From Leptospira biflexa (GTDB taxonomy: Bacteria; Spirochaetota; DYNZ01): a DNA stretch of 64,000 bases. Position numbers and translations under genes: made by a program. The DNA is taken from assembly GCA_020720805.1 (NCBI GenBank), contig DYNZ01000003.1:35927-99926 (forward strand), written 5' to 3'. The notes beneath the pieces were generated by a model that saw nothing but the letters and a program-made list of their open reading frames with translations, did not search any database and was not told the origin of the DNA. Position 1 is the first letter of the stretch, and the number at the start of each line of letters is the position of its first letter. Shown piece after piece: positions 3,918 to 55,205 of this stretch.

Positions 3918-4625
3918 TTGATGAATCGAGATTTTTTTATTGCGTTAGACTTTTCCACCAGCGCAGAGGCGATATCTCTTGTAAAGATGCTTCCGACGGA
4001 GCATCTTTATTATAAAATTGGTATGGAGTTATTTTTTCGTGAAGGCGAACGTATTTTGTATACTTTGGCTGAAGCAGGGAAGAGAGTATTTCTTGATCTA
4101 AAGCTTTATGATATTCCAAATACTGTTTCCAGAGCCATCGCATCCCTGGCGGCCTACCCTTTTTATATGGTAAATGTTCATCTACTGGGAGGCGAGATGA
4201 TGGTCAGGGAGGCGCTTGTTGCCGCTCACCATTTGTCCTTTCAACCTAGAGTCATAGGTGTAACGATATTGACTTCCTATGATATAGATGCGCTAGCTGC
4301 GATATTCCCGGGAAATGAAAGAATTTTACCTGAAGAGTGGGCGCGCTATCTTGCCGTTCAGGGCAAACAATGGGGAATTGAGGGCGTTGTATGTTCACCC
4401 CATGAGGCTGCTTTAATTAAAGAAAGCTGTGGTAATGATTTTCTAACCGTAACTCCGGGAATCCGGTTTAGCGATGAGAAAGCTCATGATCAGAAGAGAG
4501 TCGCGACACCGGAGCGTGCGCGTAGAGAGGGGTGTGATTTCCCTGTGGTGGGTCGCGCTATAACCGAGGATTTCTCCAAGGCGGAGTCCAATTACGAGAG
4601 ATTTCTTTTTGCCTGGAATGTATGA
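3918..4625 (+). CDS. pyrF: orotidine 5'-phosphate decarboxylase
   Basis: 235 aa. DLKLYDIPNT (DxKxxDIxxT) active-site motif and IALDFST N-terminus. Confidence 0.9.
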   Translation: MMNRDFFIALDFSTSAEAISLVKMLPTEHLYYKIGMELFFREGERILYTLAEAGKRVFLDLKLYDIPNTVSRAIASLAAYPFYMVNVHLLGGEMMVREALVAAHHLSFQPRVIGVTILTSYDIDALAAIFPGNERILPEEWARYLAVQGKQWGIEGVVCSPHEAALIKESCGNDFLTVTPGIRFSDEKAHDQKRVATPERARREGCDFPVVGRAITEDFSKAESNYERFLFAWNV

Positions 4626-5944
4626 TGTACTCCTTCTATACTATCTTATTTGCCTGTTTGCTTTTCGCTCTACGATTGATAGCCCTTTTTCATAGGAACG
4701 TCGGCCTGATTTTCTGCATGCGGAGAAATGTATTCGAAAAAAGTCAAGCGCTGCGAATTCAATTTCCAAACCATAAGCTAATGATTTTTCATGGGGCGTC
4801 AGTCGGCGAATTGATGCAGCTCCTGCCTGTTGCGCAGGCCTGGAGTAAGGAAAAGCCTCGCCAGGAAAAGATCCTATTTTTGTTTACCTTTTTTTCGCCC
4901 TCGGCGTTGCCGTTCACGGCCAAATGGGAGGAGGAGGGGTTATATCATTTCTTGCCTCTTCCCCTGGATTGCCCCAAAACGATAAAGAGGTGGCTTTCAA
5001 TACTAAAGCCAACCCTTTTTTTGACAGCGAGTTATGAGATATGGCCTAATCTGTTTCGCTCCCTGAGGCAAGCGAGGGTGCCAAGTGGGATTATCTCCGC
5101 TTTGCATCGCGAAAACTCAGGACAGTTTACCGGGTGGTACTCCTGGTTTTTTCGAGAGGTTTTACGGGAATTGTCCTTTGTGGATGCTGTAGATTCCCAG
5201 CATCAGCGCCGTTTTCAGGATTTTATCAATTCAACTATTCCCGTCTTTGCATCGGGAGATTCTCGTTGTGATTATATTGCGCAGCAGATGAAAATGCAAA
5301 AAACAAAAAATCAATCTGAGGATAGGTTGTTGCTGCAGGAGCAATTTCACTCCTGGTACAGAAAGATAAAAACAAAGAGGCGCATATTAATATTGGCCAG
5401 CACCTATGCTTCCTGTGAGCAGGTTATTTTCCCCCAGCTTCCTGAGTTGCTGGTAAAGTTTCCACAGTTAAATGTTATCGTTGTTCCCCATAAAATCGAC
5501 AGGCCGCGAATCGATGAGGTTCGTCAATCCCTGAACCAGCTTCAGATCTCTTTTTGTAGTTTGCATCAACCTGAATCCGGGTTTACTCGTGTATTTATTG
5601 TCGATGCACTTGGGATTTTGCTGCATCTGTATCGGTATGCTCACCTTGTTTTTGTTGGCGGGAGTTTTCACTATCGCATCCATAATGTGTATGAACCAGC
5701 CGCACACGGTGCAGCGCTGGCGTTTGGACCCAAAAATAAAAATTCTCCGGAGGCGCAACGGCTTATCCAGGCGGGCGGAGCCAGAGAGGTGGGCTCTGGA
5801 GAAGAATTTTTTCAGTGGGTACATGATCTGATGCGGGATTCCCAAATGGTTCGTTCCTTAGGGCAAAAAAATCAATTGGAGTTTCGGAAAAATCTGGGAG
5901 CATCAGAAAAAATGGTTCGGAATATAAAAAGTTTACAGATTTAA
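4622..5944 (+). CDS. waaA: 3-deoxy-D-manno-octulosonic acid (Kdo) transferase
   Basis: 440 aa. N-terminal membrane anchor, conserved FHGASVGE motif and glycosyltransferase C-terminal half. Overlaps pyrF by 4 bp. Confidence 0.85.
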   Translation: MMYSFYTILFACLLFALRLIALFHRNVGLIFCMRRNVFEKSQALRIQFPNHKLMIFHGASVGELMQLLPVAQAWSKEKPRQEKILFLFTFFSPSALPFTAKWEEEGLYHFLPLPLDCPKTIKRWLSILKPTLFLTASYEIWPNLFRSLRQARVPSGIISALHRENSGQFTGWYSWFFREVLRELSFVDAVDSQHQRRFQDFINSTIPVFASGDSRCDYIAQQMKMQKTKNQSEDRLLLQEQFHSWYRKIKTKRRILILASTYASCEQVIFPQLPELLVKFPQLNVIVVPHKIDRPRIDEVRQSLNQLQISFCSLHQPESGFTRVFIVDALGILLHLYRYAHLVFVGGSFHYRIHNVYEPAAHGAALAFGPKNKNSPEAQRLIQAGGAREVGSGEEFFQWVHDLMRDSQMVRSLGQKNQLEFRKNLGASEKMVRNIKSLQI

Positions 5945-7459: not shown

Positions 7460-7993
7460 GTGGCAAAAACTAGAACCTACTCTATACTTAAAAGTAAAAA
7501 GCAAATTCAAAATCTTTTTCAGGATGGGGAACAGTTATTTCATCAGGGTATTTTTTGTAAATTTCATGTACGTCAGGCTCCATTGGATACGCCTCTGCAA
7601 GGCATCATACATCAGCAAAAATACCAAAATAGCATAGTTAGAACAGAAACAGATCGGTTTGACCAAGATTCCCATGAGAATACGAGCCAGAAAAGGGTGT
7701 TGGATGTATCCTATTTTGTTTCTGTTTCTAAAAAGATTCCGACAAAGGTTTTGCGAAACCGCCTGAAAAGAGTGATACGGGCTCATCTTGATGTTGTGCA
7801 TGAGCCATTTTTTAAGGATTTGGAAAGCCGGGGATACAGTGCCCCTGCTTTGGATATAGCCTGGATTGCGAATGGTAAATTTTTGGATTTTTCATATCCG
7901 GAAAGAAATGCGATCATGCAGAATTTGTTGAAAAGAGTTTTGCGTATGTTGGCGCAAAACTCCTCAAGCAAATACCAGCATCCAATAGTATAG
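7460..7993 (+). CDS. rnpA: ribonuclease P protein component
   Basis: GTG start. Conserved RNR-box region [19 protein letters not shown]. Immediately downstream of rpmH as in the canonical cluster. Longer than usual (177 aa), with an insertion. Confidence 0.8.
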
Positions 7994-8006
7994 AGACGAT
8001 TCGTTT

Positions 8007-8312
8007 ATGTTAAAAAAAATGGGGAAAGGGTTTCTGTGCGGATTGTTGTATCTGCTTTCCCTTTTTTTTATCAGTTTAGTAAAATTTTACTCTGTATTCA
8101 TCTCACCTCTCTTACCTGCTTCTTGTCGCTACACTCCAAGCTGTTCTCAGTATATGATCGAGGCTATACGCAAATGGGGTCCTTTTTATGGGATTTTTTT
8201 GGGTAGCCGACGCATTCTGAGCTGCAACCCCTGGGGCGGGAGTGGGCATGACCCAGTTCCGGAACCGCCGGGGCGTCATTGGTATTCCATGTTGCATCAG
8301 GATCGTAATTGA
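8007..8312 (+). CDS. yidD: membrane protein insertion efficiency factor YidD
   Basis: Conserved YSPSCSQY-like motif ([17 protein letters not shown]) and CNPWGGxGxDPVP C-terminus. Confidence 0.85.
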
Positions 8313-8414
8313 TTTTGCTCCTTCTCCGTCTTGATCTCTTTGAAGTGTATTCAATCGCAAGGTAGCGTTATCATTAGAATTATGAAAAATTTCAGGAAGG
8401 AAGCGTAATACGCT

Positions 8415-10241
8415 ATGGATAAAAAAATAGTCATTGCAATCGTTCTATCCGTCATCATCTGGCTGGGTTATTTTTGGATTTTTCCGCCGCCAAAACAGGA
8501 AAATATCGATAAGGGGAAAGCAGACGCTAAGGAGCAGGTAAAAACCAAAGAGGTAAATTCAAAAATAACTGATACGCAGCAAGTAAAGAAAAATATAAAA
8601 AATGTAGAGGCTTTGCTGCAAAAGCAGGGAAGAAAAAAAGCCGGATTGACCGGTTTTGAGATTGATGAGATCTGGCTAAAAAAGAACCAAATTCCTGGTC
8701 AATCTGCCATTACGATGGAGACAGATATGTATCAGGTTCGTTTCCTCTCGGCTGGTGCTCAGGTTGATAGTTTTCGGTATAAAAAATATAAGGAAAAGGA
8801 TGGAAAACCTGTTGAGCTGGTAATACAAAGCAAACACTACCACGCTCCGAAAAGTTGGCCTTTTGCTTTTGATCTAAAAACAACCGATGACTCTTTTCTC
8901 TCAGAAGCAAAATTTATGGATTCGCTCCCTTTTGTCTTAAAGAGGTCAGAAGAAAAGAATAGCACAGTAATGACAGCTGCAATTCAGGGGCGATTGGATG
9001 GAAGCCTGGTTTTGCTGGAGAAGATTTTTCGTTTTCAAAAAGATAAGAATTATTTTGAGTTAGAGCTGCGCATTTCCAATCTCGACAAGAAAAACTTTGT
9101 GGGTCCATTCGAAAACGCCACTCTACAAATTGGTCACCTGGTTGGTCCCGATATTGACCTTGAGGATCCCTATAATCCAATGAAATTTGGGTACCAGGCT
9201 GCTGGTAATTTTCATACTTTGGATAAGCAAGGAGGGTTTTTTTCTGATAAACCACCAGCCCTAACCAAAGCCCCTGAAACAAATATTCAAATGGCCGCTC
9301 TCCACTCTCGCTATTTTTTACTAAGCGTGGTACCAATGCAACCTTTCCGGAAAATTTGGGGCGATACACGTCCTGCAACCGCTTTTCAATTGGGAGGTTT
9401 CCTGTCAAAGGTAGAACTGTCGCCAGGTGAGGTTTATCAAAACCGCTTCTTTGTTTATGCCGGGGAGAAAGAAAAGGATATTTTACAAAGCTTTGTAGCG
9501 GATATTTCCAAAGCAGGGTATAAAGGCGAAGGATTAGCTGATGCTCTAAAGGAAACTATTGATGTTCACTGGTCCATTGAGATTGTTCGGGATTTACTGG
9601 TTAAGCTCCTGCTACTTTTAAACTCGCTTTTTCACAATTATGGACTTTCGATCATTGCTTTTGCGATTATAACTAAGTTAATTTTTTGGCCTTTAAACCA
9701 AAAAAGCGCAGATTCCATGAAAAAAATGTCTGATCTTGCACCTCAGATGAAGGATCTCCGTGAAAAATATAAGGATAATCCTGCTGAAATGAATAAGCGC
9801 ACCATGGAGCTCTACCGGAAGAATAAGGTGAATCCTGCATCAGGATGTTTGCCGATTTTGATTCAGCTTCCGTTTTTTATAGCCCTTTATAGCGCTCTTT
9901 CCAATAGCGCAATATTGTGGAATGCTCCATTTTATGGATGGATTCAGGATTTGTCGATTCCAGATACTGTGGGGCATTTGCCGCAACAGTTGGGAGGAAT
10001 TTCGATCAATATTTTGCCAATAATCATGATCATTACCCAATTTTTTCAGCAAAAACTGACAACCCCTACGACTGCGGATCCAAACCAGAAGCGGATGATG
10101 TACCTGATGCCTGTACTTCTCATTTTCATTTTTTGGCAAATGCCCTCTGGATTGGTTTTGTACTGGAGCGTTCAGAACGTGCTCGCGATTGGACAGCAGG
10201 TATACACGAACCATAAAGGGAAAAAATTGGCAAATGCCTGA
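8415..10241 (+). CDS. yidC: membrane protein insertase YidC
   Basis: 608 aa. N-terminal TM, large periplasmic domain, and a C-terminal 5-TM core carrying the conserved KMxxLxPxxxxLxEKYKDxP ... LPILIQxPxF motifs. Confidence 0.9.
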   Translation: MDKKIVIAIVLSVIIWLGYFWIFPPPKQENIDKGKADAKEQVKTKEVNSKITDTQQVKKNIKNVEALLQKQGRKKAGLTGFEIDEIWLKKNQIPGQSAITMETDMYQVRFLSAGAQVDSFRYKKYKEKDGKPVELVIQSKHYHAPKSWPFAFDLKTTDDSFLSEAKFMDSLPFVLKRSEEKNSTVMTAAIQGRLDGSLVLLEKIFRFQKDKNYFELELRISNLDKKNFVGPFENATLQIGHLVGPDIDLEDPYNPMKFGYQAAGNFHTLDKQGGFFSDKPPALTKAPETNIQMAALHSRYFLLSVVPMQPFRKIWGDTRPATAFQLGGFLSKVELSPGEVYQNRFFVYAGEKEKDILQSFVADISKAGYKGEGLADALKETIDVHWSIEIVRDLLVKLLLLLNSLFHNYGLSIIAFAIITKLIFWPLNQKSADSMKKMSDLAPQMKDLREKYKDNPAEMNKRTMELYRKNKVNPASGCLPILIQLPFFIALYSALSNSAILWNAPFYGWIQDLSIPDTVGHLPQQLGGISINILPIIMIITQFFQQKLTTPTTADPNQKRMMYLMPVLLIFIFWQMPSGLVLYWSVQNVLAIGQQVYTNHKGKKLANA

Positions 10242-46327: not shown

Positions 46328-48040
46328 GTGAAAATCATTCAATTTTTGTACTCAGAGGGTGGCCTGGCATTTTTGCATTTTACGCAAACGATCATGTTTG
46401 CCACCATGATATATATTCTCCTTGCTGAGTATTTGCGTACCAAGCGTTCCGAACTTGTTTTTAAGTTAATCGCTGCACTCAGTATCACCGCAATCAATAT
46501 TGCCACAACCACAGTATTGATTTTAAGGGTTTTTTACGAGATCCATGTATCAGAAAAATATGTACCCCTAATTTTTAACGCCCTTTTTGCGGTCATCGTT
46601 CTTGCATTGGCTCGCGCATTTGTTTACGACTTCATTCATAATAAACAGCGCTTTGATCTAGTAATTCGCATAGGTATGGGATTCGTACTCATAGGCTATG
46701 TTTCGATTCAATTGTACTGGATTGCAATTTTTACCCCTGGAATGATTTTTGGAAAATCAATTTTTCAGCTCACCTTCTCCATGTTTTTTATTTTTATGAT
46801 CGGTTTCTCGATCTACTATATATTGAGTTTTCGCCGGAAATATCAATTCCGTCTCATTCTTGCATTTGGGTCGATTGCTGTTGCTCAGTTTGTCAATATT
46901 TATGCAGTAGTTTCTGTTGATTTTCCTCCTGAGCTTCTTATTCTGCGCGCCTCAGCTCCGTTACTTGTTCCGATTATGTTTGCTAGCGTTGTTTTTAAGG
47001 AGTTAATCGAGGCGGTGGTAACTATGGCGGATCACCTGAGGGAGGTGTTCGAGAGTGAGCGTTCTTTGGTTCTGGATCTTATGAAAATGAGCGGTGAATT
47101 ATCCAGCTATTCCGATTCTCTGGTGAAAATGTCCGTTGAAGGTTGGCAAAAACTTTCCGGAGTTGTTGAAAATATCTATGCTCAGGAGAAGGATAGAGAT
47201 GATATTTTATCGATGACATCCGCAACCTCGAATCTTGTGGAGACTATGGTGGAGTCCGCGCGCACTACAGGAGTCAATCCATCCTCAAAAAAGTCAAATG
47301 GCATCACCAATGAATTTGGCTTAAGGGATGACCAGAAGGCGATAGAACAAACACTACAGGGGGTGCAGAAAGCTTTTCAAAATGCGGATGAAATTTTTGA
47401 AAATATGCACAAGTTGTTGCAGAATTTGCTTGCGAGTTCCTCGCGCATTTCGCAGGCGTTGGACATAACCAATGAGGTTTCCGATCAGACCAATATGCTT
47501 GCCCTGAATGCGGCTATTGAAGCGGCACGAGCTGGTGAAGCAGGAAAAGGATTTTCCATTGTTGCTGATGAGATTGCAAAGCTGGCGGAGCGATCCATGC
47601 ATAGTTCAAAAAGTATCGATACATTTGCCATAGATATTGTAGCAGGTGTAAACCGTTCTCATGCCATCCTGGAGGATGGTCGCCACAAATTAACGGAGAG
47701 TCTGAAAGAGATGCGGAAAATTCAGAGTTTTTTTGATGATGTTACGTTTACATCCGATCTGTTTGAAGCTATGATCATAACTCGGAATGAACTTTTCTAT
47801 AACCAGAAATTAAAAAGCGAAAACGTTTACCGCAATATGATTGCAACGGATAAATTGATTAAAAAAAATCAAGAAAATGCAAATGTCATGAAAGATGCCA
47901 TTAGCAAACATATACGCGATATAGAATCCATTGCAGGCGTTAGCGATGAGATAAACGATATGATTAAAAAATTGAATCGAACAATTAATGAGATCATTAA
48001 AACAACTGAAAAACTGGAAATAATTACAGGTTCAAAATGA
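46328..48040 (+). CDS. methyl-accepting chemotaxis protein-like transducer with 6-7 TM N-terminal domain
   Basis: 570 aa. Multiple N-terminal TM helices. The C-terminal region contains the highly conserved MCP signalling motif [34 protein letters not shown]. No HAMP or periplasmic sensor recognised. Confidence 0.7.
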
Positions 48041-49110: not shown

Positions 49111-49635
49111 ATGGAAAGACTTTATACCCCTTGGAGACGAAACTACATTGTCGGTGCCGAGGCAAAAATTAATGATGAGAAAGAGGACAAGAGTTGTGTT
49201 TTCTGCGATATTTTTACAGATACACCGGATAATGATTCTGCCAATTTACTTTTACTAAGAAACGTTAACAGTTGCATATTGTTAAATAAATTTCCATATA
49301 ATAGTGGTCATTTAATGGTTATACCTCTGCTTCATGAAGGAGACCTTACAATGTTGTCTGCGGAGATACAGAGTGAACTGATGTATGTAACCTCTTATGC
49401 TGTTTCGATTCTGCAACAGACCTACCGACCGAAAGCATTCAATATCGGGATTAATATGGGGAAAACGGCAGGAGGAAGTATCTCAGAGCATATCCATATT
49501 CATATTGTTCCTCGCTGGGATGGCGATACCAATTTTATGCCAGTAATCGGTCAAACTAAAACCTTGCCGGAAGAGCTGCCCCAGACTTATGAGCGTCTGG
49601 CGGCAATGATAAAAAATAGACCTCTTCTGGCCTGA
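49111..49635 (+). CDS. HIT-family (histidine triad) nucleotide hydrolase/transferase
   Basis: 174 aa. HIHIHIVPRW histidine triad. N-terminal CVFCDI zinc-binding-like motif. Confidence 0.8.
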   Translation: MERLYTPWRRNYIVGAEAKINDEKEDKSCVFCDIFTDTPDNDSANLLLLRNVNSCILLNKFPYNSGHLMVIPLLHEGDLTMLSAEIQSELMYVTSYAVSILQQTYRPKAFNIGINMGKTAGGSISEHIHIHIVPRWDGDTNFMPVIGQTKTLPEELPQTYERLAAMIKNRPLLA

Positions 49636-49646
49636 AAGTAAAGGAA

Positions 49647-49997
49647 TCAGGACTCCTTTTTCTTGTCAGTCTCCCCTGTTTTAGGTTTTTCATCGGATTG
49701 AAAAATTTTCTTTACATGATCGAAAATATTTGAAAAGCTTTTTGCTAATTCATCACCGAGCCTTTCAAGCTCCTTTTGGATATCTTCAAGCGCGCCGCTG
49801 CTACGGTCTTGCCATTGCTTCATTTTTGCCTGGAGATCCTCCCGTTTTTGCTTGAGTTCGTCAATTTTTTTTCTAGCCTCTTCTTTCGCGCTCTCTTTTG
49901 TCTTGTCAAATTGAGATTCCAGGTCGCCTAATTTGGCGTCCCACTCTTTTAATAACTCACTCGCCTTTAATAGCAGGCTATCGCGATCTTCTGCCAT
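49647..49997 (-). CDS. small coiled-coil protein, unknown function
   Basis: 116 aa, K/E-rich heptad-like sequence. Last gene of the minus-strand NfeD/sigma/SPFH cluster (30 bp downstream of the SPFH gene). Confidence 0.5.
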   Translation of the reverse strand: MAEDRDSLLLKASELLKEWDAKLGDLESQFDKTKESAKEEARKKIDELKQKREDLQAKMKQWQDRSSGALEDIQKELERLGDELAKSFSNIFDHVKKIFQSDEKPKTGETDKKKES

Positions 49998-50027
49998 CTT
50001 TTCCTCCCAAAAAATGAATAAAATAAT

Positions 50028-50777
50028 TTACTTAACTGAGAATTTTTTAAAAGCTTCCAGGAATTCAATGGGCAACGGAATAATCGTATGAGTAGATTTT
50101 TCGGAAGCGATCTCATTGATTGTCTGTAAGTAACGAAGTTGAATTCCATTGGGGTGCTGCCCTATGGTAATCGCAGCAGCAGCCAGTTTTTCGGCGGCCT
50201 GAAGCTCTCCTTCTGCGTTAATTATTTTAGCTCGGCGATCGCGTTCCGCTTCTGCCTGTCTTGCCATAGCTCTTTGCATCTCCACTGGAAGGTCAATATG
50301 CTTTAGCTCAACACCTGAAACCTTGACGCCCCAAGGGTCGGTATGAAGGTCAAGGATAGATTGCAAATCTTCGTTTATTTTTTCGCGATCCTGTAAAAGC
50401 TCATCCAACTCCCGATTTCCGCAAACAGAGCGCAGGGTAGTTTGAGCCAATTGGCTGGTCGCGTAAAGATAGTTTTCAATCTCGATAATAGCCTTAACTG
50501 GGTCAATCACTCGAAAATATAAAACGGCATTTACCTTGATCGAGATATTGTCCTTGGTTATCACATCCTGAGCTGGAACATCCATCGTAACAGTTCGCAA
50601 ATCCATTTTTTGCATTCTATCGACCAGGGGGATAATCCAGATGATGCCAGGACCTTTCGCGCCAACGATGCGTCCCAATCGAAAAACCACTCCTCTTTCA
50701 TATTCGGTTAAAATACGAAACCCAGAAATGATGATCAAAAGGAGAAAAAGAACCGGACTCAGAAAAATGAGATCCAT
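50028..50777 (-). CDS. SPFH/band-7 (stomatin-like) membrane protein
   Basis: 249 aa. N-terminal TM, then SPFH core ([11 protein letters not shown] ... [35 protein letters not shown]). Confidence 0.85.
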
Positions 50778-50804
50778 AAGGTCGCTCCTATATTCTTGGT
50801 TGAA

Positions 50805-51254
50805 TTATAAATGACGTAATAGAAATTTTTCGTACTTTTGCACCCAGGATGGAGAACCATTCTGGGATAGTTGTATCGAAAAAGCTACCGCTAGTAAGGC
50901 TGCTCCTATGCCAAAAAAAACACTGATGAGGGCATAATATCCAACAGGCATCGATAAAACGTCCTTTGGGAAATAGATCCTCATGACCAAAGGTACAACC
51001 ATTAGGGTAAAAAAACCAATCAAAAAAAACAACGACCAGATTAAGGGCTGCATCGCTTTATGATGAATTGGTGCAAAAAGGCGTACATAGAGAGATTCCG
51101 GTACATTTTTCTGCGGTATGGCGCGCAATCCCCTGATGATGCTCTCCATGATCACTTTTTCATTACGGCATTCGGAACAGATTAAAATGTGATCGATGGC
51201 CTCTGATGAAAGATTTTCCGGATCTTGATATATCTCTTTTCTATAATGTTTCAT
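50805..51254 (-). CDS. membrane-anchored zinc-binding anti-sigma factor (ZAS-like)
   Basis: 149 aa. HxxxCxxC motif (HILICSEC) in the N-terminal cytoplasmic part. Two predicted TM helices. Overlaps the sigma gene by 4 bp. Confidence 0.7.
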   Translation of the reverse strand: MKHYRKEIYQDPENLSSEAIDHILICSECRNEKVIMESIIRGLRAIPQKNVPESLYVRLFAPIHHKAMQPLIWSLFFLIGFFTLMVVPLVMRIYFPKDVLSMPVGYYALISVFFGIGAALLAVAFSIQLSQNGSPSWVQKYEKFLLRHL

Positions 51255-51781
51255 ATAAACTCCTGATCTTCTAATTTTTTTCGTAGAATCTGTTTTCCTC
51301 TGTGAATATTTGCTTTTAGCGTACCTTCATTGATCGAAAGTTTTACGGCGATATTGGCATAGCTGAGCTCTTCATAATAGTAGAGTAATAACGGTAGCCG
51401 GTACTTTTCAGGTAGGCTTTCTAATGCCTTTGCCACAACCTCATTTTGATCCCGTGCAGACAGAGCCTGGAAGGGATCGCTGCCAATGCCTGAAATCGCC
51501 ATTGTTTCGATTTCATCATCCGAGCTGAAGAACCACTCAGTTTTTTTTTTCCTGAGACGGTTTAACCCCTCGTTCAAAGCAAGCGAATAGAGCCAGGTCG
51601 AGAATTTTGCTCTTCCGGCAAATTGATCAAGGCGGCTGAAGGCCTTCTCGTACACATCCTGCGAAAAATCGAGCGCATCCTCTTCATTTCGAAAGAGCCT
51701 GAGCCCAAGGTTATAAATCATTTTCGATGTATCGAAAAATAGCTGCTCCTTGTCGAAAATATCTACATCACTCCTGTTCAC
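51251..51781 (-). CDS. ECF-subfamily RNA polymerase sigma-70 factor
   Basis: 176 aa with a GTG start. Region 2 (ALDFSQDVYEKAF) and region 4 HTH (LSYANIAVKLSINEGTLKANIHRG). Contains a 10-A homopolymer (plus-strand T run, 51541-51550) encoding KKK. Confidence 0.85.
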   Translation of the reverse strand: MNRSDVDIFDKEQLFFDTSKMIYNLGLRLFRNEEDALDFSQDVYEKAFSRLDQFAGRAKFSTWLYSLALNEGLNRLRKKKTEWFFSSDDEIETMAISGIGSDPFQALSARDQNEVVAKALESLPEKYRLPLLLYYYEELSYANIAVKLSINEGTLKANIHRGKQILRKKLEDQEFI

Positions 51782-51799
51782 TCGAAAGCCAGCACCGAA

Positions 51800-52135
51800 T
51801 CATAGCTCATTTTTTTGCATCAAGAAGAAAAAAAGCAAAAACCCCAAACCGACAGAAAAAGGAATTAGACCACCAAAAGAGGCGTAGCTTACTCCATCGA
51901 TAATGATAAAAAAGATGGTCATGGGCAAACCTAACGCTGTCGCTACTGTTCCAATCAGTAAAGACCAGGATCGGATGTTTTTCCAGAACTGCGGTTCATA
52001 ATGGCCGCTTTTGATGATCTCTCTCTGGATGCGATAGCGCCAGAGTAGGAAGAAAAATAGCAGGATGGATCCTGCTACAATGCCTACAAGGGGGACTATG
52101 GCTAATATAATTTGTGCAGTGGTACTCTCGTGCAT
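51800..52135 (-). CDS. small 3-TM membrane protein, unknown function
   Basis: The ORF opens at 52177, but ATG 52135 has an AGGAAG Shine-Dalgarno 4 nt upstream (111 aa). Three hydrophobic helices. Ends 18 bp upstream of the sigma factor gene. Confidence 0.55.
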   Translation of the reverse strand: MHESTTAQIILAIVPLVGIVAGSILLFFFLLWRYRIQREIIKSGHYEPQFWKNIRSWSLLIGTVATALGLPMTIFFIIIDGVSYASFGGLIPFSVGLGFLLFFFLMQKNEL

Positions 52136-52280
52136 ATTGCTTCCTGAATCAATTTGAATAGGAAAACCAATTTCCATACGAATAACATCCCATTGGACAG
52201 ATTTTTATCTTTGAAAGTTGCAAAAAATCAGTTTTCTCTATAGGAATTGGCATTTTTTAAACGGTTAGTATTACCATCTT

Positions 52281-53627
52281 CTAAGAGGATTCATCGATAG
52301 GTTCAACAATCATCTCCATCCCTTGTACGGCAACGACACGAACTTTATTCCCAGGGTATAGGTTCTCTTTTGACGTGGAAGAAGAGGATGCGTTCCATGT
52401 CTCTCCGTGCAGGAAGATCTTTCCGGATTTTTCCGGTAGTATCTCCTTGGTTACCTTTGCCTTTTGGCCGACTAACCCCTCAAGACCTGTAATTGGTCTG
52501 CGCAGGGCTGTTTTTCCAATAAAATAAAGAATAAAGCCAAGAAAAGCAGAGAGGGTGATGGCTAGAGAGACAACCAGCAGCCACGAAACATTCAGGTCTG
52601 ACTCCGGAGTGTCAAACAGGAATAGGGCCCCTAAAACAAAACTGATGATTCCTCCTGAACCGAGTATGCCAAAACTAGGAACCATAAATTCCGCTGAGAG
52701 TAGTAAAATTGCCAGGATAATTAGAGCCAACCCACCATAGTTTATGGGAAGAATCTGCAGGCTTACTAAACCGAGTAAGAAGGAGATACCGCCCAAAACT
52801 CCCGGGAAATAGGTTCCGGGATGGTAGATCTCGGCAATGATGCCAATAGAACCCAATGATAACAGCAAGAGTGCGATATTGGGGATGCTAAGGATATTGA
52901 GAATTTTTTGTACCAGGGTCATCTCCTTTGGCACCTGGATAAGATTTTCTGTGTGCAATTGACGGGTTTTTCCGAGAACTGTAACTGTACGACCATGAAC
53001 CTGTTTTAATAGCGATTGGTAATCGGTGGCGATGAGATCGACAACACCCCTCTCTTTGGCCTTTTCGGCTGTTAAAGAGTGGCTATATTTTACAGCCTCA
53101 ATGGCCCATTTCGCGTTTCGCCCGGTTTTATTGGCAATGGCTTCAATAAATGAGGAGGCATAGTTTTCTACTTTTTTGGCCATATCCTTACCCCCTTCCT
53201 CTTGAATATCTTTGCCGGAGCCAGAAACGGGGTGGGCAGAACCAATACTGGTGCCTGGAGCCATCGCGGCCACATGTGCAGCCATGGTTATAAAAACACC
53301 TGCAGATGTGGCACTTGCACCCGCAGGGGCAATTAGAATGAGTACAGGGATAGGGGAATTCAGGATGGTCTGGACAATCTCTTTTGTGGAAGAGAGTAAC
53401 CCACCTGGCGTGTCCAGTTCGATCAGTATAAGTTCATGATGGCTTGCTGTTGCAAATCGGATGCCTTTCTGGATGTAATCTGCTGAAGCGGGATTGATTC
53501 CTCCTTTTATTTGAAGGTAGGTATATGTCCTTACCTGGTTGGCAGCAGGCAAGAGGGCGACAAAGAGAATCAGTTGCATCATAAATATCCAGAATACAGG
53601 TAAAAATTTTCTCATTTTTATTCCCAT
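52281..53627 (-). CDS. NfeD-family membrane-bound ClpP-class serine protease (stomatin-operon partner protein)
   Basis: 448 aa. N-terminal signal/TM. ClpP-like protease domain (TPGGLLSSTKEIV ... catalytic Ser region). Central multi-TM segment. C-terminal OB-fold-like domain. Confidence 0.8.
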   Translation of the reverse strand: MGIKMRKFLPVFWIFMMQLILFVALLPAANQVRTYTYLQIKGGINPASADYIQKGIRFATASHHELILIELDTPGGLLSSTKEIVQTILNSPIPVLILIAPAGASATSAGVFITMAAHVAAMAPGTSIGSAHPVSGSGKDIQEEGGKDMAKKVENYASSFIEAIANKTGRNAKWAIEAVKYSHSLTAEKAKERGVVDLIATDYQSLLKQVHGRTVTVLGKTRQLHTENLIQVPKEMTLVQKILNILSIPNIALLLLSLGSIGIIAEIYHPGTYFPGVLGGISFLLGLVSLQILPINYGGLALIILAILLLSAEFMVPSFGILGSGGIISFVLGALFLFDTPESDLNVSWLLVVSLAITLSAFLGFILYFIGKTALRRPITGLEGLVGQKAKVTKEILPEKSGKIFLHGETWNASSSSTSKENLYPGNKVRVVAVQGMEMIVEPIDESS

Positions 53628-53815
53628 CGCTTCTCTTCTATGTTGTTAGTTTCCAATTTGACAGATTTTTTTGCCTTTTAAATCATTTTTATTAATTTAT
53701 TTGAATAATAACTGATTTTTTTCGTTTTTATTATAAGCAGCTAACCTAATGGTTTTTTATGTGAATGAGGATCTTACAAAAAATTTTCCATATATACCGA
53801 AAAAAATTCGGTCGA

Positions 53816-54120: not shown

Positions 54121-55205
54121 ATGATTCGAAAGCCAATACAAACCCTTATCAAGCAGGCATCCATTCTCATCGTTGACGATCAGATGACAAATATTGTGTT
54201 GTTAGAGAAGATTCTGCGCTCGGACGGTTACCAGAATATTACCTCCACAACGCAACCCATAGATGTTCTGGAACTATATATGGCAAATCAGTTTGATATT
54301 GTTTTACTTGATCTGGAAATGCCCCGGTTGAATGGCTTTGAGGTTTTGGAACAACTTCAGAATTTTGAGAGAGACAATTATGTTCCTGTCCTTGTGGTAA
54401 CTGCCCAGAGCGAAGAGGACATTCGCCTTCAGGCACTGCAGCAGGGAGCCAAGGATTTTATCACCAAACCCTACAATAGTCTGGAGGTTTTAAACCGGAC
54501 CCGAAATATGATCGAGGTGCGCATTCTCAATAAGCAGCTTTTGAATCAAAATCGTATCCTGGAAGAGCGGGTTCTGGCGAGAACCCAGGAGCTGGAGAAT
54601 ACCCGTTTTGAGGTGATTCAGCGTTTAGCCAGAGCCGCGGAATACCGTGATCAGGAGACCGGCAACCATATTTTGAGGATGAGCCACGTAAGCAGGCTTT
54701 TGGCAGAGAAGTTGGGATGGCAGCAATATGATCTGGAGGTTATTTAAATGCGAGTTCACTTCATGATATAGGTAAAATTGGGATTCCTGACAAAATCCTA
54801 CTGAAATCAGGTCCGCTTGATCCGCAGGAATGGGAGATTATGAAGACTCATGTTATCATTGGAGCGGAAATTATGGAAAATGCAAGCCATACACTGCTGC
54901 AGATGGCAAAGACCATTGCCTTAACCCATCATGAAAAGTGGGATGGTAGCGGGTATCCCTTTGGACTCAAGGGAGAAGAAATTCCTATGGCAGGCAGGAT
55001 TGCTGCGCTTGCGGATGTGTTTGATGCTCTCTTATCTGTAAGACCATATAAGAGATCCTGGTCTCTTGACGAAGCGGTGACGGAGATAAAAAACCAGAGC
55101 GGGCGGCATTTTGATCCTCGCTTGGTGGATATCTTTTTGGAAAACCAGGTGGCTATTCTTGCTATTTATCAGAAATTTCGTGATAGTAGTTTAGAAAATG
55201 GATAG
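54121..55205 (+). pseudogene. REC-HD-GYP response regulator (RpfG-like c-di-GMP phosphodiesterase) interrupted by a single-nucleotide frameshift
   Basis: ORF 54121-54747 (frame 1) encodes the REC domain and the start of HD-GYP, then hits TAA at 54745. The HD-GYP signature LHDIGKIGIPDKILLK is readable in frame 3 from 54747 and continues into ORF 54840-55205 (HHEKWDGSGYP). The frames join with a 1-nt indel in TATTTAAAT (54741-54749). Confidence 0.8.

Follow-up and report, generated by a model that had tools for sequence, protein, structure and literature searches.

The window analysed here, a 64-kb stretch of contig DYNZ01000003.1 (positions 35,927 to 99,926 of the forward strand), comes from a Leptospirales-like metagenome-assembled genome (MAG) and carries six minus-strand genes in which a small membrane protein, a sigma factor of the extracytoplasmic function (ECF) type and a membrane anti-sigma factor (hereafter the trio) lie between an NfeD-family membrane serine protease and a stomatin-type SPFH protein, with a gene for a small coiled-coil protein at the end of the cluster (Table 1). 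All six open reading frames (ORFs) were recovered in the order and at the coordinates given in a first-pass annotation made from the letters alone, and the distances between them, when measured from the ORF coordinates, were also as reported there (103, 18, -4, 27 and 30 bp). The labels NfeD, ECF sigma and SPFH held up as well, each being backed by Pfam or NCBIfam profile matches above cutoff. Identical six-gene order was seen in three independent assemblies of the source organism, and the arrangement recurred in four diverged lineages (L092/L009, L095, L010 and L177); it is therefore neither a chance constellation nor an assembly artefact. For L092 the correspondence extended to the wider synteny, which runs PstB, FBA, NfeD, trio, SPFH, coiled-coil gene, HIT, GcpE, methyl-accepting chemotaxis protein and ParB in both. 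No second copy of NfeD, SPFH or a sigma factor was present in the 64-kb window, and Rfam and tRNA scans of its whole length returned no match. A dedicated site-1 or site-2 protease (S2P, DegS) was absent from the six-gene cluster, the rest of the window not having been screened for proteases.

Table 1. Features of the NfeD–trio–SPFH cluster, listed in the direction of transcription (coordinates are those of the window; TM, transmembrane segment).
Feature	Position	Strand	Details
NfeD1b-type membrane serine protease	52281-53627	-	448 aa; three Pfam NfeD domains
ECF-type promoter (predicted)	52192-52222	-	TGCAAC 52222-52217, 18-nt spacer, GTC 52198-52196, then CAAT; A/T tract before
DUF6249-like small three-TM protein	51800-52177	-	125 aa; start probably Met15, 52135
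ECF sigma factor	51251-51781	-	176 aa; Sigma70_r2, r4_2, TIGR02937
Membrane anti-sigma factor	50805-51254	-	149 aa; HxxxCxxC, two TM; overlaps sigma gene by 4 bp
Stomatin-type SPFH protein	50028-50777	-	249 aa; Band_7
sll1863-family coiled-coil general-stress protein	49647-49997	-	116 aa; NCBIfam NF052504
Terminator-like hairpin and T-run	49618-49633	-	Probable end of transcription unit

The NfeD protein starts with a hydrophobic segment at its N-terminus, continues with ClpP-like protease and multi-TM domains and closes with a C-terminal OB-fold domain; it exceeded the Pfam cutoffs for PF25145 (NfeD1b_N), PF24961 (NfeD_membrane) and PF01957 (C-terminal domain). Its N-terminal domain matched Pyrococcus horikoshii 1510-N (PDB 2deo) with E = 1e-34, and its GASATSAG and KKVENY stretches align to PH1510, following the patterns GASA(T/A)SAG and K-x-x-NY. 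The catalytic dyad of PH1510 consists of Ser97 and Lys138 (PMC3795559); Ser108 and Lys152 of the window protein align with these two residues and were invariant across 16 homologues. Judged from these alignments, the protease looks catalytically competent. The SPFH protein, for its part, matched Band_7 (PF01145) at 141 bits, above cutoff. The segment at which PH1510 cleaves the stomatin PH1511 is KSNVIVL/MLPMEMLK, with the slash marking the cut (PMC3795559), and the C-terminal hydrophobic segment of the window SPFH protein aligns to it and keeps the KS...LP.E.L pattern. This cleavage-like segment was conserved in SPFH proteins with or without the trio at the locus. Since both the dyad and the cleavage segment are conserved, the protease–substrate relation between NfeD and SPFH is likely to be intact here. 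The coiled-coil protein encoded next to SPFH scored 56.2 bits against NF052504 (sll1863 family; cutoff 35) and has homologues near SPFH in L092 and L093. In Synechocystis, Sll1863 itself ranks among the proteins most strongly induced by stress (PMC8670252).

Within the trio, the sigma factor carries sigma-2 and sigma-4 domains only, as ECF (group 4) factors do, with PF04542 (Sigma70_r2) and PF08281 (r4_2) above cutoffs and TIGR02937 at 94.4 bits versus a cutoff of 42.9. The best named model was SigW (NF007223 and TIGR02948), at scores below the equivalog cutoffs (108.2 versus 209 and 97.5 versus 243 bits, respectively); by profile score, the protein is SigW-like in a loose sense only. Its orthologues, at 38–62% identity, were confined to Leptospirales, Leptospiraceae or Leptonemataceae-type MAGs. 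The small protein encoded upstream, described in the first-pass annotation as a three-TM micro-protein, does have three TM segments and resembles DUF6249, with a Pfam match (24.9 bits, E = 2e-5) that falls under the family cutoff of 33; we refer to it as DUF6249-like. The start assigned to it in that annotation probably has to be moved. An AGGAAG Shine-Dalgarno sequence lies 4 nt upstream of the Met15 ATG (52135), the ATG at 52177 stands only about 12–14 nt past the ECF -10 element described below, and in L092 the orthologue has 113 aa. For these reasons translation more likely begins at Met15, in which case the gap to NfeD would be about 145 bp.

The anti-sigma factor had no Pfam match, and a word-indexed homologue search with it returned the query itself only. 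An exhaustive HMMER search, however, found 19 family representatives among 1.84 billion proteins, and H22, C26, C29, E32, P52, W73 and P88 were invariant in all of them. The first three form an H22-x3-C26-x2-C29 motif in the N-terminal helical domain, and this HxxxCxxC pattern was kept in 9 of 14 anti-sigma orthologues derived from the loci. When a profile of the locus-derived orthologues was used, the best PDB match was RsiW bound to sigma-W (5wuq, E = 0.0045), with an alignment that spans HxxxCxxC and the following helix. The AlphaFold2 (AF2) model of the protein (mean predicted local distance difference test score 83.6, rising to 95–98 for residues 1–40) comprises four N-terminal helices, two long TM helices with a ~9-residue loop between them, and a short C-terminal amphipathic helix; fold searches with the protein gave no informative match. 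The earlier label of a zinc-binding anti-sigma (ZAS)-type factor is consistent with these data, given that H22, C26 and C29 are invariant in the 19 representatives and fall in the confidently modelled four-helix N-terminus. As modelled, the protein is a ZAS-like membrane anti-sigma factor essentially without an extracytoplasmic domain. Binding to the sigma factor is predicted, with positional support from its place as the +1 gene with a 4-bp overlap.

Trio neighbourhoods were recovered for 17 distinct orthologous sigma lineages and annotated with phmmer. The DUF6249-like gene lay directly upstream of the sigma gene in every one of them, and a two-TM anti-sigma-like ORF followed the sigma gene, usually with a 4-bp overlap, in the 15 lineages where this could be read. 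Of the other two, L019 breaks off at the sigma gene, and L027, a Leptospiria MAG chromosome, has an apparently degenerate copy (7986-8533): its sigma gene is broken into two ORFs, no promoter motif can be recognised and no two-TM anti-sigma gene follows, so that the trio may be decaying there. Flanking sequence was examined for up to 6–8 kb on each side of the trio (about 1–4 kb on one side in four short contigs), and within it neither NfeD nor SPFH was found in 12 of the 17 lineages. Typical neighbours of such a free trio were NeuB and NusG on one side and an SIS-CBS isomerase on the other. Only in five lineages (the window, L092/L009, L095, L010 and L177) did the trio lie between NfeD and SPFH.

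Sixteen of the 17 lineages share a sequence motif upstream of the DUF6249-like gene, TTGCAAC-N15-18-GT(C/T), in which an A/T tract precedes T-GCAAC and GT(C/T) comes 15–18 nt later, often with TAAT behind it. ECF promoters generally show AAC at -35 and a CGT-like -10 element (PMC5758882), and the motif is taken to be the autoregulatory promoter of the trio. The window copy (52222-52196) falls within the gap between NfeD and the trio, and the motif was the only strict coding-strand match in the locus copies L001, L092, L095 and L010. Across the whole window there were three strict matches versus 2.5 expected by chance; those at 9374 and 17053, the latter inside an ORF, were set aside as chance-level. 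Taken together, the neighbourhoods and the motif show the DUF6249-like/sigma/anti-sigma trio to be a free-standing unit with its own conserved, predicted promoter. As a separate observation, the sequence AAAAATCTGTCAAATTGG at 53640-53665 on the minus strand, upstream of NfeD, is close to the trio -10 region (AAAAATCTGTCCAATGGG) and has no TGCAAC at -35. The candidate -10 element considered there, ATCTGTCAAAT, was judged coincidental, as its resemblance to the trio -10 region is not accompanied by TGCAAC at -35.

As a reference for what NfeD–SPFH junctions normally look like, metagenomes were scanned with an NfeD alignment. This yielded 80 unrelated NfeD1b loci, 57 of which were informative, their sequence continuing for 1 kb or more downstream of NfeD. 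SPFH lay directly downstream of NfeD in 55 of the 57, at -4 to +91 bp in 50 loci and with its longest-ORF start overlapping the NfeD end in five; the remaining two had no SPFH within 1.4 kb of downstream sequence. Neither a sigma factor nor any other gene was found between NfeD and SPFH in the 57 informative loci. The first-pass annotation had started from the premise that the two genes form an adjacent pair and had noted that the window breaks it. Both statements agree with the census: the sampled pairs are contiguous in 55 of 57 cases, while in the window about 1.5 kb, with three genes and a promoter, intervene. A sigma module between NfeD and SPFH is thus an unusual arrangement and a real exception. 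A further combination of sigma factor and SPFH was seen in a Poribacteria MAG (L089, 7884-10245), where an unrelated ECF sigma gene and a 177-aa HxxxCxxC anti-sigma are followed, 447 bp further on, by a stomatin-type SPFH gene. As an independent sigma–SPFH link this locus was discarded, being one among about 64 distant ECF loci, compatible with chance and without NfeD.

Two of the closest NfeD relatives (57–63% identity), L176 and L093, have the NfeD–SPFH pair and no trio. In L176 the two genes are separated by an empty gap of 172 bp. In L093, which shares the FBA...HIT-GcpE synteny, the gap (4112-4881) holds a gene for an AbiEii-like nucleotidyltransferase (181 aa) together with a 75-aa ORF, and this cargo looks like a toxin–antitoxin-type cassette. 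Because one gap is empty and the other filled with this cassette, the NfeD–SPFH pair evidently does not need the trio in order to function, and its junction takes other cargo. No ECF motif was found on the coding strand of either locus. In a neighbour-joining tree, which carries no support values, L176 and L093 grouped inside or beside the clade of embedded lineages.

In a concatenated alignment of the DUF6249-like protein and the sigma factor, the five embedded lineages formed one clade in 49 of 60 bootstraps (82%). By now their NfeD proteins have diverged to 56–63% and their sigma factors to 55–62% identity. As the embedded lineages are monophyletic in this tree, the simplest reading is a single insertion of the trio into the NfeD–SPFH junction, in the ancestor of one Leptospirales-like clade, followed by vertical inheritance.

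Transcription signals around the inserted trio were then compared between the window and its relatives. In the window, the 27-bp gap between the anti-sigma stop and SPFH contains a ribosome-binding site only and no terminator; SPFH would therefore have to be transcribed from within or through the sigma operon. Between the genes of the cluster the minus strand has a single terminator-like site, the hairpin at 49633-49618; one further minus-strand match lies inside the DUF6249-like coding sequence. Given the position of this hairpin after the sll1863-like gene and the lack of anything other than a ribosome-binding site in the 27-bp gap, SPFH and the sll1863-like gene are most likely co-transcribed with the trio. 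A search of the coding strand ahead of NfeD and of SPFH in the window, L092, L095, L010, L093 and L176 gave no second ECF-type promoter.

These observations are best accommodated, with a probability that we put at roughly 0.55, by an independent, autoregulated ECF trio that was inserted once at the NfeD–SPFH junction and that in the window has brought SPFH and the sll1863-like gene under its ECF promoter. The cluster would then be two joined systems. One would be the NfeD1b/stomatin-type SPFH pair, in which NfeD, by homology with PH1510/PH1511, would cut the C-terminal hydrophobic segment of SPFH and not the anti-sigma factor. The other would be the self-contained trio, with its DUF6249-like three-TM protein, its ECF sigma factor and its two-TM, RsiW-like anti-sigma factor bearing HxxxCxxC, transcribed from its own promoter. 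Since the anti-sigma factor has almost no extracytoplasmic part, sensing of the signal would take place in, or at, the membrane, and the DUF6249-like protein would probably share in it. The consequence in the window would be transcriptional, with SPFH and the sll1863-like stress gene placed in the sigma factor's own stress-induced transcript.

Several findings weigh against this interpretation. The argument for co-transcription draws only on spacing and on the absence of a terminator. Among the relatives, L092 and L095 show a hairpin and T-run at or after the NfeD stop, and the 140–208-bp gaps before SPFH contain sigma-70-like hexamers, scored by a scanner in L095 (TTGACT-16-TATATT, 10/12 positions matching) and recognised by eye in L010 and L092. 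In view of these hairpins and promoter-like hexamers, NfeD, trio and SPFH look transcriptionally separable in the relatives. ECF control of SPFH may thus be partial, or peculiar to the window lineage, in which the link between trio and SPFH looks tightened relative to the relatives. In addition, the trio-less L093 and L176 have no ECF motif before NfeD or SPFH, so SPFH is not demonstrably an ancestral member of the regulon. The sigma-only tree does not recover the embedded lineages as monophyletic (8 of 60 bootstraps). Lastly, the retention of gene order at 55–62% sigma identity hints at a selective tie, which a transcriptional model explains weakly.

The main rival is that the junction is simply a permissive landing site, and that the trio and the NfeD/SPFH pair have no regulatory or physical relation at all. 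The same gap holding an AbiEii-like cassette in L093 and nothing in L176 is what such a site would look like, a single insertion event accounts for every occurrence, and the spacing is loose, with 103 to about 700 bp between NfeD and trio and 27 to 208 bp between anti-sigma and SPFH; the separate promoter-like and terminator-like signals of the relatives fit equally well. Mere adjacency is harder to reconcile with the window, where the space ahead of SPFH is down to 27 bp with a ribosome-binding site only, and with an order that has persisted through substantial divergence. Bacillus subtilis, moreover, offers an established case of NfeD/SPFH operons under ECF control (PMC3498285), which makes a regulatory tie plausible. 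We regard the neutral explanation as possible, though clearly short of an even chance. The first-pass annotation had gone in the opposite direction and suggested a regulated-proteolysis device in which NfeD/SPFH, in place of a DegS/RseP-type pair, controls release of the sigma factor. On this view all six genes form one device, and NfeD, scaffolded by SPFH, would remove the anti-sigma factor and so replace a DegS/PrsW-type site-1 step. All the players are membrane proteins, NfeD looks competent for catalysis, the anti-sigma factor lacks an extracytoplasmic domain for a conventional site-1 protease to recognise, and the HflK/C-FtsH complex is a known case of a membrane protease controlled by SPFH cages (PMC10153343). 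The NfeD–trio–SPFH order has also been kept in five lineages despite 56–63% NfeD and 55–62% sigma identity. The inter-TM loop of the anti-sigma factor (VLSMPV in the window, VLVLPS in L092) is even loosely like the VIVL/MLPM of PH1511, but the resemblance is confined to these two of the five embedded lineages and absent from the other three, and the loop was rejected as a PH1511-like cleavage site. The comparative data, by contrast, do not support the proposal: the trio stands without neighbouring NfeD or SPFH in 12 of 17 lineages, its embedding is restricted to one clade and hence to one event, the NfeD–SPFH locus works without it in L176 and L093, and the relatives' terminator-like and promoter-like signals separate the three parts. 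Biochemically, NfeD proteases are known to cut one substrate only, the stomatin C-terminus (PMC3795559), a segment that is conserved here. No paper linking NfeD with anti-sigma turnover was found in a literature search. A census of NfeD–SPFH pairs for embedded sigma genes, which the annotation had suggested as a check, came out divided, with none among the 57 sampled loci and the arrangement shared by four diverged relatives. Because those relatives do associate the pair with sigma and anti-sigma genes, the idea of control by proteolysis is weakened, not disproved; we consider it unlikely.

Coupling without proteolysis would also be conceivable. The DUF6249-like protein or the anti-sigma factor would then be bound by the OB domain of NfeD, by the SPFH assembly in the role of a microdomain or fluidity sensor, or by both, and release of the sigma factor would be gated by sequestration. 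Both candidate partners are almost wholly intramembrane and could read membrane state, gene order is kept in the five lineages, and in B. subtilis an SPFH protein recruits stress proteins via small TM partners (YdjI with YdjG/H and PspA; PMC8581546). Set against this are a trio that is mostly found elsewhere, close relatives that do without it, and a failure to find any covarying or clade-specific interaction motif separable from phylogenetic signal. This form of coupling we hold to be very unlikely. That the anti-sigma factor has become an NfeD/SPFH client in this clade by one route or the other, cleaved by NfeD or sequestered by the stomatin cage together with the DUF6249-like protein, is improbable on the same comparative evidence. 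If it were true, SPFH-read membrane state would feed into ECF sigma activity, a new input route for ECF factors, and the anti-sigma factor would be the first non-stomatin substrate or partner of an NfeD protease. A proteolytic device would therefore matter much more than a transcriptional link, and it is the former that the comparative evidence currently argues against.

Returning to the favoured reading, of a self-contained trio inserted at the junction, the closest known counterpart is sigma-W of B. subtilis, whose regulon takes in all three SPFH operons of that organism: yqeZ(NfeD)-floA-yqfB, yuaF(NfeD)-floT-yuaI and pspA-ydjGHI(SPFH), with YdjI linking PspA to the membrane (PMC3498285, PMC8581546). 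Both systems pair an ECF sigma factor with an HxxxCxxC membrane anti-sigma factor (SigW being the best named model and RsiW the best PDB match), and in both the promoter's -35 contains AAC and its -10 element is of (C)GT type. Sigma-W places NfeD/SPFH operons and a coiled-coil stress protein under ECF control, as is predicted in the window for SPFH and the sll1863-like gene. They differ in that the window sigma factor scores far under the SigW cutoff (108 versus 209 bits), and in that RsiW has one TM and an external domain cut by PrsW, whereas the window anti-sigma factor has two TM and no extracytoplasmic domain. A DUF6249-like third gene, moreover, always accompanies the window-type system. 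This gene was not detectable upstream of the nearest non-Leptospirales sigma relatives that were fetched, although a two-TM anti-sigma-like gene lay downstream. Finally, sigma-W acts from a distance, whereas the window regulator sits inside the NfeD–SPFH operon; by analogy, the window looks like sigma-W logic achieved by physical insertion of the regulator.

Other comparisons bear on single parts of the cluster. The window pair resembles PH1510/PH1511 in the NfeD N-domain (E = 1e-34) with its Ser-Lys dyad, in the retained SPFH cleavage segment and in belonging to a type of gene pair that is normally adjacent, and differs in being split by three genes and an ECF promoter. The sigM-yhdL-yhdK operon of B. 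subtilis is an autoregulated three-gene ECF operon with a small multi-TM accessory protein. As in the trio, an ECF sigma factor, a membrane anti-sigma factor and a small polytopic protein are encoded together there; the accessory gene, however, comes last in that operon and first in the window, and the topology of the anti-sigma factor differs. In E. coli the membrane anti-sigma factor RseA holds the ECF factor sigma-E, and in both cases release presumably needs removal or inactivation of the anti-sigma factor. Unlike RseA, the window protein has no periplasmic domain for a DegS-type cut, exposing only the ~9-residue loop outside the membrane, and the cluster contains no S2P or DegS gene to correspond to RseP and DegS. 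DUF6249 proteins have been reported beside sigma factors in Bacteroidota, in the clsB neighbourhood of B. fragilis and at PG1662 of P. gingivalis (bioRxiv 10.1101/2025.05.12.653583; PMC12094164). The likeness lies in a small membrane protein encoded beside a sigma factor, whereas the match of the window protein to DUF6249 is sub-threshold.

If the transcriptional reading holds, an organism of the spirochaete lineage would have coupled membrane maintenance by stomatin and NfeD to an envelope-stress sigma factor of the ECF type, in what appears to be a development separate from sigma-W in B. subtilis. This would suggest that membrane-stress regulons have come to include SPFH repeatedly. The trio deserves attention in any case, as an ECF system that is restricted to one lineage and uncharacterised and in which a DUF6249-like protein accompanies a two-TM anti-sigma factor without an extracytoplasmic sensor. 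Its conserved promoter motif offers a direct handle for regulon prediction in complete genomes of the group.

Two further genes in the vicinity of the cluster are worth recording. On the plus strand, 46328-48040 encodes a 570-aa protein with a long polytopic N-terminal membrane region and a C-terminal methyl-accepting chemotaxis signalling domain; the gene sits between parB and ispG, a position conserved in L092. Also on the plus strand, a gene for a response-regulator receiver fused to HD-GYP (RpfG-like; 54121-55205) is split by a frameshift near 54735-54750. Its first frame stops at 54745-54747, and the HD-GYP motif LHDIGKIGIPDKILLK continues in another frame (ORF 54840-55205). The same split was present in three independent assemblies, so the frameshift or pseudogene is genuine and does not stem from a sequencing error.

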